From a virus (lineage: Duplodnaviria; Heunggongvirae; Uroviricota; Caudoviricetes), in IMG/VR virus record IMGVR_UViG_2651869755_000005: a DNA stretch of 6,052 nucleotides; one strand, given 5' to 3'. A model generated the notes under the pieces. That model did no database searches and was not told the origin of the DNA. It worked only from the letters and a program-made list of their open reading frames with translations. Below, piece by piece: positions 1 to 6,008 of this stretch; position 1 is the first letter of the stretch; each line of letters starts with the position of its first letter. Made by a program: the position numbers and the translations under genes.

Positions 1-206
1 TGGCGGAGAGCATCAATGGTCTTTACAAAGCGGAGGTAATACACCGTAAGAGCTGGAAAAACCGTGCAGAAGTGGAACTGGCCACACTCACGTGGGTGGA
101 CTGGTATAACAATCGACGATTGCTGGAAAGGCTGGGCCATACTCCTCCGGCAGAAGCAGAAAAAGCTTATTATGCTTCCATCGGAAACGATGATCTGGCA
201 GCCTGA
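1..206 (+). CDS. IS3-family transposase OrfB, C-terminal part (5' end outside window)
   Basis: Open frame 3..203 with stop TGA at 204..206; conserved DDE-transposase C-terminal motif W-V-D-W-Y-N-x-R-R-L. Confidence 0.8.
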   Translation, partial: AESINGLYKAEVIHRKSWKNRAEVELATLTWVDWYNNRRLLERLGHTPPAEAEKAYYASIGNDDLAA

Positions 207-248
207 GTTCACAGATAAAATACTCTCCAGGAAACCCGGGGCGGTTCA
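1..248 (+). mobile_element. 3' end of an IS3-family insertion sequence (IS629-like), truncated by the window start; right inverted repeat ends at ...GGGGCGGTTCA (pos 248)
   Basis: Frame-3 translation of 3..203 gives a typical IS3-family orfB C-terminus (...ATLTWVDWYNNRRLLERLGHTPPAEAEKAYYASIGNDDLAA*). The sequence 207..248 is the reverse complement of the terminal repeat TGAACCGCCCCGGGTTTCCTGGAGAG... that I recall for IS629/IS1203-type elements. Exact IS identity is from memory, not a search. Confidence 0.8.
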
Positions 249-419
249 GCCGCAGATGAGCTTGTCCATATGACTGCGAGAATTAACCGTGGTGAGGCGA
301 TCCCTGAACCAGTAAAACAACTTCCTGTCATGGGCGGTAGACCTCTAAATCGTGCACAGGCTCTGGCGAAGATCGCAGAACTCAAAGCTAAGTTCGGACT
401 GAAAGGAGCAAGTGTATGA
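249..419 (+). pseudogene. P: 3' remnant of lambda-type replication gene P (about 56 codons), truncated upstream by the IS insertion
   Basis: Frame continuous from the IS boundary (249) to stop TGA 417..419, ending ...KAKFGLKGASV. The stop overlaps the ren start (ATGA at 416..419), the P-ren arrangement of lambda. No intact N-terminus or promoter-proximal start exists downstream of the IS end. Confidence 0.6.
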
Positions 420-731: not shown

Positions 732-763
732 AGGCCTGCTGGTAATTGCAGGCCTTTTTATTT
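732..763 (+). terminator. Rho-independent terminator, tR2-like, between ren and ninB
   Basis: Perfect 8-bp GC-rich stem AGGCCTGC (732..739) / GCAGGCCT (748..755) with an 8-nt loop, followed by TTTTTATTT (755..763). Confidence 0.6.
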
Positions 764-779
764 GGGGGAGAGGGAAGTC

Positions 780-1220
780 ATGAAAAAACTAACCTTTGAA
801 ATTCGATCTCCAGCACATCAGCAAAACGCTATTCACGCGGTACAGCAAATTCTTCCAGACCCAACCAAACCAATCGTAGTAACCATTCAGGAACGCAACC
901 GCAGCTTAGACCAGAATCGAAAGCTTTGGGCTTGCCTTGGTGACGTCTCTCGTCAGGTTGAATGGCATGGTCGCTGGCTGGATGCAGAAAGCTGGAAGTG
1001 TGTGTTTACCGCAGCATTAAAGCAGCAGGATGTTGTTCCTAACCTTGCCGGGAATGGCTTTGTGGTAATAGGCCAGTCAACCAGCAGGATGCGTGTAAGC
1101 GAATTTGCGGAGCTATTAGAGCTTATACAGGCATTCGGTACAGAGCGTGGCGTTAAGTGGTCAGACGAAGCGCGACTGGCTCTCGAATGGAAAGCGCGAT
1201 GGGGAGATCGGGCTGCATGA
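780..1220 (+). CDS. ninB: NinB (Orf-family recombination mediator), 146 aa
   Basis: MKKLTFEIRSPAHQQNAIHAVQQILPDPTKP... is near-identical to lambda NinB as I recall it; strong SD (GGGGAGAGGGAAG) ahead of ATG 780. The track's upstream TTG at 762 is rejected as start. Confidence 0.9.
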   Translation: MKKLTFEIRSPAHQQNAIHAVQQILPDPTKPIVVTIQERNRSLDQNRKLWACLGDVSRQVEWHGRWLDAESWKCVFTAALKQQDVVPNLAGNGFVVIGQSTSRMRVSEFAELLELIQAFGTERGVKWSDEARLALEWKARWGDRAA

Positions 1221-1744
1221 CTATCAAATCAAATACGCCAGCACACGACAAGGACTGCTGGCAAACGCCGCTTTGGCTTTTTGATGCACTGGATATTGAG
1301 TTTGGATTCTGGCTGGATTCGGCAGCGAGCGACAAAAATGCTCTGTGCGCTCACTGGCTAACTGAGGACGACGACGCGCTCAATTCTGAGTGGGTAAGCC
1401 ACGGTGCAATCTGGAATAACCCACCGTACAGCAATATCAGGCCGTGGGTGGAAAAAGCCGCTGAGCAGTGTATACAACAGCGACAGACGGTAGTGATGCT
1501 TGTGCCAGAGGATATGTCTGTCGGATGGTTCAGCAAGGCTCTGGAGAGTGTTGACGAAGTTCGTATTATCACTGATGGACGGATTAATTTTATCGAACCA
1601 TCGACAGGGCTGGAGAAGAATGGAAACAGCAAAGGCTCCATGCTGCTGATTTGGCGACCGTTCATCAGTCCTCGACGGATGTTTACTACCGTATCCAAAG
1701 CGGCATTGATGGCGATCGGGCAGGGCGTCAGGAGGGCTGCATGA
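1217..1744 (+). CDS. Phage-type DNA N6-adenine methyltransferase (small Dam-like), 175 aa
   Basis: Catalytic motif IV N-P-P-Y within ...[11 protein letters not shown]...; size and context typical of lambdoid nin-region Dam-like methylases. ATG 1217 overlaps the ninB stop (ATGA) with a GGGGAGA SD about 9 nt upstream; upstream Met codons in the track ORF (from 1157) would overlap ninB and are rejected. Confidence 0.8.
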
Positions 1745-3052: not shown

Positions 3053-3436
3053 ATGCGTGATATTCAGATGGTTCTTGAGCGTTGGGGTGCGTGGGCGGCT
3101 AATAATCATGAAGATGTGACCTGGTCGTCCATTGCCGCCGGTTTTAAGGGATTAATTCCTTCAAAAGTAAAATCTCGCCCGCAATGTTGTGACGATGACG
3201 CGATGATCATTTGCGGGTGCATGGCCCGTCTGAAAAAGAACAACAGCGATTTACACGATTTATTAGTAGATTATTATGTATGTGGTATGACATTCATGTC
3301 ACTGGCAAGTAAGCATTGCTGCTCGGATGGTTATATCGGGAAAAGGTTACAGAAGGCTGAGGGCATAATTGAAGGGATGTTAATGGCATTAGATATCCGG
3401 TTAGATATGGATATCGTTGCTAATAATTCTAATTGA
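3053..3436 (+). CDS. quuD: Q-family late-gene antiterminator (QuuD-like), 127 aa
   Basis: [31 protein letters not shown]...[16 protein letters not shown]... matches DLP12 QuuD in length and sequence as I recall it; ATG 3053 with GGAG SD at 3042..3045. Track start 3038 (TTG) rejected. Confidence 0.88.
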
Positions 3437-3454: not shown

Positions 3455-3486
3455 AAGTTATTAAAAATGGGGCGTGGAAACGCCCC
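3455..3486 (-). terminator. Candidate rho-independent terminator on the - strand (likely nmpC terminator)
   Basis: Stem GGGGCG (3469..3474) / CGCCCC (3481..3486) with loop TGGAAA; on the - strand the hairpin is followed by ATTTTTAATAACTT (complement of 3455..3468). Confidence 0.5.
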
Positions 3487-3624: not shown

Positions 3625-4707
3625 TTAGAACTGATAAACCAGACCTACAGCGACGATGTCGTCGGTATCAATACCAGCTGTTTTGGTAAACTTACTATCG
3701 TCAATTAAGTTGATTTTGTAATCAACAAAAGTAGACATGTTTTTATTAAAGTAGTAAGTAGCACCGACATCGACATACTTGACTAAGTCTCGGTCACCAT
3801 GAACACCAAGGTCTTTACCTTTTGACTGAAGGTAAGCAACAGATGGGCGCAGACCGAAGTCAAACTGATATTGTGCTACTGCTTCAAAGTTTTGTGCTTT
3901 GTTTGCAATATGGTTATTACCAAAAACGGTCATATTCTGAGTTTCAGAATATGTGGTAGCCAGATAGATATTGTTCGCATCATATTTCAGGCCTGCAGCC
4001 CATACTTCCGCATTTTTGCCGGAGGCATTGAATTTGCTCTTACCATAGGCGACCTGACCGTCAGTGCGATCTGATTTAGCATAGGTTGCACCCACGCCGA
4101 ATCCTTCATACTCATAAGTAGTGGAGAAACCGAAACCATCACCATTGGCTTCAGTTACGTCAGTGCGGTCATTTTTACCCTGATACTGAGCAGCAAAGTT
4201 CAGGCCATCGACCAGACCAAAGAAGTCGTTGTTACGATAAGTTGCAACACCAGTAGTGCGACCAGTCATGAACACATCTGTTTGGGTCCAGGTATCACCA
4301 CCGAATTCTGGCAGAACGTCAGTCCACGCACCGATGTCGTATGCTACACCGTAGTTACGGCCGTAATCGATGGAGCCGTAATCACCAAATTTCAGGCCTG
4401 CAAATGCAAGACGGGTTTTGTCTTTGGAAGAACCTTGAGATTCAGCACGGTTGCCTTTGAATTCATATTCCCACTGACCGAAACCAGTCAGTTGATCGTT
4501 GATTTGGGTTTCACCTTTGAAGCCAAGACGGGCATAAGTAGTATCACCATCATCTGCATCATTAGAGGAGAAGTAGTGCTTGGCATTAACTTTCCCGTAT
4601 AGATCCAGCTTGTTACTGTCTTTATTATAAATTTCAGCTGCCTGAGCAGACATCGCCATCAGTACTGATGCAGCTACAGCAGAAATTGCCACTGTTAATT
4701 TTTTCAT
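3625..4707 (-). CDS. nmpC: Outer-membrane general porin of the OmpC/OmpF/PhoE family (NmpC-like), apparently intact, with signal peptide
   Basis: Signal peptide [23 protein letters not shown] then [16 protein letters not shown]...; C-terminal ...VGLVYQF with terminal Phe typical of beta-barrel OMPs. Start ATG (complement of 4705..4707) chosen over the track's upstream Met (4767) because of the signal peptide and an AAGGG SD. Position and orientation between quuD and essD match DLP12 nmpC. Confidence 0.9.
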
Positions 4708-5295: not shown

Positions 5296-5511
5296 ATGAA
5301 ATCCATGGATAAGTTAACAACGGGTGTCGCCTATGGCACCTCAGCAGGTAGTGCCGGTTACTGGTTTTTACAGCTGCTCGATAAAGTCACGCCCTCACAG
5401 TGGGCAGCAATAGGTGTGCTGGGTAGCCTGGTATTTGGCCTGCTGACGTACCTGACAAACCTTTATTTCAAGATTAAAGAAGATAAGCGCAAGGCTGCGA
5501 GAGGTGAATAA
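5296..5511 (+). CDS. essD: Holin, phage 21 S-like pinholin (EssD-like), 71 aa, with dual-start motif
   Basis: [71 protein letters not shown] resembles DLP12 EssD / S21 as I recall them; Met1-Lys2-Ser3-Met4 gives the two-start holin/antiholin arrangement; GAGGTGGGG SD upstream; two hydrophobic segments. Confidence 0.9.
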
Positions 5512-6008
5512 TGCCTCCATCATTACGAAAAGCCGTTGCTGCTGCTATTGGTGGCGGAGCAATTGCTATAGCATCAGTGTTAATCACTGGCCCAAGTGGT
5601 AACGATGGTCTGGAAGGTGTCAGCTACATACCATACAAAGATATTGTTGGTGTATGGACTGTATGTCACGGGCATACAGGAAAAGACATCATGCTCGGTA
5701 AAACGTATACCAAAGCAGAATGCAAAGCCCTCCTGAATAAAGACCTTGCCACGGTCGCCAGACAAATTAACCCGTACATCAAAGTCGATATACCGGAAAC
5801 AATGCGCGGCGCTCTTTACTCATTCGTTTACAACGTGGGTGCTGGCAATTTCAGAACATCGACGCTTCTTCGCAAAATAAACCAGGGCGATATCAAAGGC
5901 GCATGTGATCAGCTACGTCGCTGGACATATGCTGGCGGTAAGCAATGGAAAGGTCTCATGACTCGTCGTGAGATTGAGCGTGAAATCTGTTTGTGGGGTC
6001 AGCAATGA
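5511..6008 (+). CDS. rrrD: Phage lysozyme with N-terminal signal-anchor-release (SAR) domain (RrrD/R21-like), 165 aa
   Basis: N-terminal Gly/Ala-rich weakly hydrophobic segment [20 protein letters not shown] followed by a lysozyme domain (...[16 protein letters not shown]...); start overlaps the essD stop (TAATG); pairing with a pinholin is the phage 21 arrangement. Confidence 0.9.

Follow-up and report, generated by a model that had tools for sequence, protein, structure and literature searches.

The protein encoded at positions 1217-1744 of a 6,052-nt stretch of Caudoviricetes DNA (the window, meaning the whole stretch that was analysed) is very probably a stand-alone, AdoMet-dependent N6-adenine methyltransferase of the phage Dam family that most likely targets GATC and that, as part of a delayed-early nin cassette, methylates replicating phage DNA. 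Its GATC target, the timing of its expression and its biological benefit are the parts of this explanation that we infer. Both the literature and standard annotation already cover the gene (dam), where it lies and what it is likely to do. Its value as a discovery is small: curated HMMs and standard pipelines name the gene, and hundreds of phage records hold it.

At a nucleotide identity of at least 95%, the 528-nt gene is carried by 244 phage records, including Stx1- and Stx2-converting phages, HK140, Sf101 and many lambda-like isolates, and by 1,566 of 5,426 complete E. coli genomes (29%), with up to five copies in each. The E. coli copies are almost always annotated as ‘phage N-6-adenine-methyltransferase’, between NinB and NinE. 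A tblastn search found the family in 1,910 phage records, with Escherichia, Klebsiella, Vibrio, Lactococcus and other hosts. The counterpart enzyme of VT-2 was reportedly cloned and assayed in 2001 (Radlinska and Bujnicki, cited in PMC6602927 and PMC7139368).

Gene structure, family and target of the methyltransferase

Direct reading of the window gives an intact ORF of 175 codons plus stop on the + strand, running from ATG at 1217 to TGA at 1742-1744 and holding the codons for NPPY, catalytic motif IV of the amino-methyltransferases (residues 68-71, positions 1418-1429). Upstream lies ninB (780-1220, +; Orf recombination mediator; PF05772, E = 1e-54) and downstream ninE (1741-1917, +; PF05322, E = 3e-40). 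The start of dam shares bases with the stop of ninB in an ATGA at 1217-1220, its stop shares bases with the start of ninE in a second ATGA at 1741-1744, and an AGGAGG stands at 1730-1735, just before the latter joint. The 175-aa ORF with NPPY and its ATGA coupling to both neighbours, as described from the sequence alone, are thus what the letters hold. The overlaps are nothing special to dam, because genes of lambdoid nin regions commonly overlap through ATGA (passages of PMC8022706, citing Kroger and Hobom 1982 and Cheng et al. 1995). In a mechanical ORF list the dam frame reaches back to GTG 1157, which would yield 195 aa. This start was rejected, since homologues from many genera begin at the M1 position (ATG 1217) and PGAP calls an identical 528-nt CDS in a 100%-identical genome. 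Minus-strand ORFs beneath dam (1351-1698, 1153-1335 and 1229-1354) were taken for shadows of the coding strand, as nothing about the + frame is left to explain. An Rfam scan of both strands of the window returned no match.

Assignment to the phage Dam family, the check proposed in the sequence-only reading, was upheld by two curated models well above their cutoffs. Pfam PF05869, ‘DNA N-6-adenine-methyltransferase (Dam)’, matched with E = 2e-65 and 220 bits (cutoff 28.1) over profile positions 1-167 of 169, and the NCBIfam equivalog TIGR01712, ‘phage N-6-adenine-methyltransferase’, matched with 264.8 bits (cutoff 97.05) over positions 1-165 of 165. The protein also matched phrog_111 (‘DNA methyltransferase’), its best PADLOC models were those for orphan methyltransferases (‘oMTase’), and PGAP names the gene ‘phage N-6-adenine-methyltransferase’ (WP_001703013.1). 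In an alignment of 45 homologues of 59-98% identity, N68, P69, P70 and Y71 are invariant, as are F31, L33, D34 and A36. The latter residues belong to a motif-I-like segment, FWLDSAAS (residues 31-38, positions 1307-1330, +), which is the counterpart of LDAAAS in T1 Dam and a putative AdoMet-binding loop.

In the AF2 model, NPPY comes straight after strand 64-67, although confidence in this model is low in places (pLDDT below 50 at residues 34-38 and poor across residues 34-50). The predicted fold is that of a class-I (Rossmann-like) AdoMet methyltransferase with NPPY following a core beta-strand, so the location of NPPY in a non-methyltransferase fold, which would have told against the assignment, is not what the model indicates. 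The closest solved structural relatives of the model are N6-adenine methyltransferases, and weaker Foldseek matches are of the same kind. A sequence search of the PDB found no relative and no solved structure for a phage Dam family member, its sole match being SdiA at the noise level (E = 0.3). With its 175 residues, the protein amounts essentially to a bare catalytic domain without a separate target-recognition domain. By full-length HMM, motif and fold, the protein belongs to the phage Dam family PF05869. The D12-class N6-adenine methyltransferase HMM that describes the classical Dam of E. coli and T4 (PF02086) did not recognise it; the earlier label ‘Dam-like’ therefore holds for function but does not extend to family-level homology with E. 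coli or T4 Dam.

The family assignment also bears on the substrate. A methyltransferase acting on RNA instead of DNA would have a precedent in the Stx-prophage enzyme M.EcoPA8orf6770P, which is annotated as a DNA adenine methyltransferase and prefers 16S rRNA (PMC10810198). We regard this as extremely improbable for dam, given that the precedent comes from a different family: it is an MT-A70 enzyme with DPPW, encoded next to int, whereas the dam protein has NPPY and no MT-A70 Pfam match, and is encoded in the nin region. Gong et al. (2023) described a Stx-prophage ‘16S rRNA methyltransferase’ that was considered as the same gene and rejected on the same features, being an MT-A70 protein with DPPW encoded near int.

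Target specificity, which had been thought unreadable from the sequence, becomes inferable through phage VT2-Sakai. Its orf32 (BAA84315, ‘similar to DNA methylase’) sits between homologues of ninB (nin146) and ninE (nin60), and its product is identical to the dam protein at 173 of 175 residues, the substitutions being D51A and N135K. The two genes agree at 518 of 528 nt, and 8 of the 10 nucleotide differences are synonymous, as purifying selection would lead one to expect. In passages citing Radlinska and Bujnicki (2001), M.EcoVT2Dam ‘is known to target 5'-GATC-3'’ (PMC6602927) and Dam-like activity ‘has been shown for ... VT-2’ (PMC7139368). We take M.EcoVT2Dam to be VT2-Sakai orf32 by elimination: in a codon-pattern scan of the whole VT2-Sakai genome for (D/N)PP(Y/F/W), orf32 was the only match inside an annotated gene. 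A sizeable unassigned ORF near int, orf4, was ruled out as M.EcoVT2Dam since it encodes DUF551. Because the dam protein is 99% identical to the product of orf32, the only methyltransferase candidate of VT2-Sakai, and because GATC specificity is reported for the VT-2 enzyme, we infer that the window allele has a GATC target, which the near-identity and the citing papers support well. PMC6602927 gives 99.2% ‘similarity’ to M.EcoVT2, a figure that matches no whole number of mismatches in 175 aa. The EC958 prophage enzyme M.EcoMIV (a ‘Dam homolog’ reported to be transcriptionally silent) was also considered as the same gene and rejected, as it belongs to PF02086.

An active adenine methyltransferase with a non-GATC, relaxed or non-specific target, as in some phage-borne orphan enzymes, is quite unlikely. 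The lack of a recognisable target-recognition domain and the two substitutions that set this allele apart from VT2-Sakai orf32 would fit such an enzyme, and non-specific prophage methyltransferases do exist in E. coli, e.g., homologues of M.EcoGI/GII (PMC6602927). However, a protein this close to that of VT2-Sakai (99% identity) is unlikely to have changed its specificity, and the variable positions 51 and 135 fall outside the conserved family columns of the 45-homologue alignment. The methyltransferase table of PMC6602927 has the non-specific enzymes as entries separate from M.EcoVT2, and in that study strains with M.EcoVT2Dam copies have methylomes without an unexplained m6A motif attributable to M.EcoVT2Dam. 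GATC itself is mildly depleted relative to base composition: the window has 14 sites where 23 are expected, and the 19-kb stretch of prophage has 49 where 76 are expected. This gives no clear signal for or against GATC methylation. Alongside these counts, CTAG occurs once where 23 were expected. GATC-poor prophage regions have been reported in E. coli methylomes (PMC4659465, PMC6602927).

Mosaic joints and genomic neighbourhood

The 11-mer GGGCTGCATGA occurs exactly twice in the window, at the ninB stop/dam start (1210-1220, +), where the homology breakpoints fall, and at the dam stop/ninE start (1734-1744, +). Positions 330-1220, comprising the end of P, ren, a terminator and ninB, are approximately 98% identical to phage lambda, as is ninB taken separately at the nucleotide level. 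This homology breaks exactly at the left GGGCTGCATGA, beyond which lambda has ninC. VT2-Sakai shows the reverse pattern, with 50% identity over the last 110 nt of ninB and, from the left GGGCTGCATGA onward, 98.1% over dam and 95.7% over ninE; ninE travels with dam (111 of 116 nt identical to VT2-Sakai). The lambda ninC/ninD joint carries GCTGCATGA, and the corresponding sites in the lambda segment lie at about 875-885 and 1744-1754. That lambda has ninC in this slot had been noted beforehand and is borne out, with ninD also between ninB and ninE. The accompanying description of dam as ‘inserted’ is right in that the gene lies between ninB and ninE; it is better regarded as an alternative cassette at a mosaic joint, because lambda homology stops and VT2-Sakai homology starts at GGGCTGCATGA. 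The lambdoid nin region has several such alternative cassettes, and dam is one of them.

Many distant Dam homologues end in -AA or -VA before the stop, though the remaining C-terminal tail varies. Together with the shared GGGCTGCATGA flanks, these conserved endings suggest conservation of the joint sequence as such, either because it couples translation or because it serves as a linker in recombination. In at least one E. coli genome (NZ_CM176350.1), ninB-dam is followed by a ninC-like gene with a PAPS-reductase domain in place of ninE, so the dam cassette occurs with several different genes on its right. Six database protein clusters (P0002, P0005, P0011, P0016, P0023 and P0093) show the Dam domain fused to a NinE, NinB, RusA, Q or PF05269 neighbour domain, and most likely arose as artefacts, from frameshifts or from gene calling at ATGA overlaps, and not as real fusions.

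The neighbours of dam include NinB, NinE, NinX, RusA and Q, for which PADLOC gave no matches. No restriction endonuclease was found among the ORFs of the window, as had been claimed for it, and none is annotated across 19.4 kb of identical prophage. Between ninX (1920-2261) and rusA (2468-2830) lies a 64-aa ORF (2254-2471) whose first 22 residues match phrog_672, and PGAP annotates a DUF1364 pseudogene fragment without its N-terminus at about 2382-2471; the region looks like a deletion scar within the nin region. Further downstream, an OmpC/NmpC-type porin gene (3625-4707, -) lies between the Q antiterminator gene (3053-3436) and the lysis genes essD/rrrD (5296-6008). Stx phages carry stx in this slot, and the porin gene is therefore a lysogenic-conversion cargo gene. 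A strong terminator-like hairpin is present at 3469-3486 (-).

Expression and role in intact phage and in the defective prophage

A terminator scan and comparison with lambda identified a tR2-like intrinsic terminator at 732-765 (+), upstream of ninB-dam-ninE, with an 8-bp stem containing 6 GC pairs and then TTTTATTTGG. Between ren and ninB, lambda has the corresponding segment with a single base changed, and we take this lambda segment to be tR2. In an intact phage, dam would therefore be a pR-driven, N-dependent delayed-early gene, transcribed from pR once N antitermination passes tR2. Its product would methylate fast-replicating phage DNA that outpaces the capacity of host Dam, such that progeny genomes would exit with full GATC methylation. 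These genomes may thereby be protected from GATC-cutting, methylation-sensitive restriction in the next host and may be seen as ‘self’ by Dam-dependent host processes. Such completion of GATC methylation, on replicating as well as packaged DNA, is the most economical mechanism. The timing accords with Phi24B, whose 528-bp dam encodes a protein 100% identical to that of VT2-Sakai. When Phi24B was induced with norfloxacin, this gene belonged to a group expressed in step with the lytic cycle (PMC3342100). By qPCR, four of the five CMAT genes tested in that study, CM2 (dam) among them, were placed with the lytic cycle.

E. coli hosts already have a Dam that methylates GATC. Epigenetic marking of the lysogen, a role suggested in the sequence-only reading, loses ground on this account, as it does on the tR2-like terminator and the lytic-cycle expression of Phi24B dam. 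It is unlikely that the main role of dam is played in the lysogen, where prophage-expressed Dam would supplement the host enzyme or stand in for it, with effects on epigenetic switching or on the stability of the lysogen. An antibody screen of lysogen cultures did detect the product of Phi24B dam, and the authors of that study put forward the speculation that in lysogens it acts in addition to host Dam (PMC3342100); the presence of the gene in 29% of complete E. coli genomes, at up to five copies, also fits a role there. Yet the qPCR results of the same study put CM2 (dam) with the lytic cycle, the gene stands behind tR2 in the pR operon, and host Dam leaves little to add, with about 99.9% of the GATC sites of such strains methylated by it already (PMC6602927). 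In the present copy, moreover, pR and N are deleted, and a consensus scan found no promoter-like site on the + strand upstream of dam.

Apart from a missing stretch of 1,372 bp that comprises O and most of P, the window corresponds to the prophage that lies beside ybhC in E. coli MMC-J-0105. The first 249 positions of the window (1-249, +) form the 3' end of an IS3-family element and match the corresponding element end of MMC-J-0105 at 100% identity. They abut a truncated P of which the last ~170 nt remain (250-419). The 1,372 bp are missing directly at the end of this element, which looks like an IS-adjacent deletion. In the annotation of the MMC-J-0105 locus, the IS3-family element has two hypothetical genes (next to int and xis) on one side and the replication gene on the other, and no repressor, cro or N is annotated there. 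Because repressor, cro, N, O and most of P are absent, the prophage is defective, lacking the immunity region and pR as well. Read-through from the IS3-family element would meet the 732-765 terminator without N. This copy of dam is intact but, because of its setting in such a prophage, is probably weakly expressed or silent.

A different picture would join two features of this locus: read-through from the IS3-family element would transcribe dam and supply a second GATC methyltransferase, while the GGGCTGCATGA joints would serve as recombination ‘linkers’ that move dam between lambdoid phages. The support for this combination is anatomical, and we consider it very unlikely. If the read-through were real, the host would hold a second, differently regulated GATC methyltransferase that could shift the timing of hemimethylation or rescue the loss of host dam.

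Comparison with known systems

The closest known system is orf32 of VT2-Sakai (M.EcoVT2Dam), which has the same length, the same ninB-dam-ninE order with ATGA overlaps and likewise no endonuclease partner. The two loci differ in the ninB allele, that of the window being of the lambda type (50% identical over the last 110 nt), and in the element itself, which in the window is a defective lambda-like prophage with a porin gene instead of stx. The HK97 dam protein is 99% identical to that of Phi24B (PMC3342100).

Phage T1 Dam (ST20, 237 aa) belongs to the same Pfam family, PF05869, and shares the motifs W.TP, LDAAAS, NPPYS, GR..FI and KGS with the dam protein. A passage of PMC7139368 that cites a JBC 1987 reference presents it as an orphan phage enzyme specific for GATC, and its database record notes similarity to the dam protein of Haemophilus phage HP2. 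In contrast to this likeness, the two proteins are 33% identical, the T1 protein has an extra N-terminus of ~45 residues and a 14-residue insertion, and T1 is a virulent phage with the gene in another genomic context. The Dam enzymes of E. coli and T4 (PF02086, alpha class) have the same reported target and chemistry (Gm6ATC) and are also orphans; as the dam protein lies outside that classical family, the resemblance is functional. In lambda, the slot between ninB and ninE is filled by ninC-ninD, joined through the same GGGCTGCATGA / GCTGCATGA overlaps, but the genes are unrelated to dam, ninC being annotated as a PAPS-reductase-like protein.
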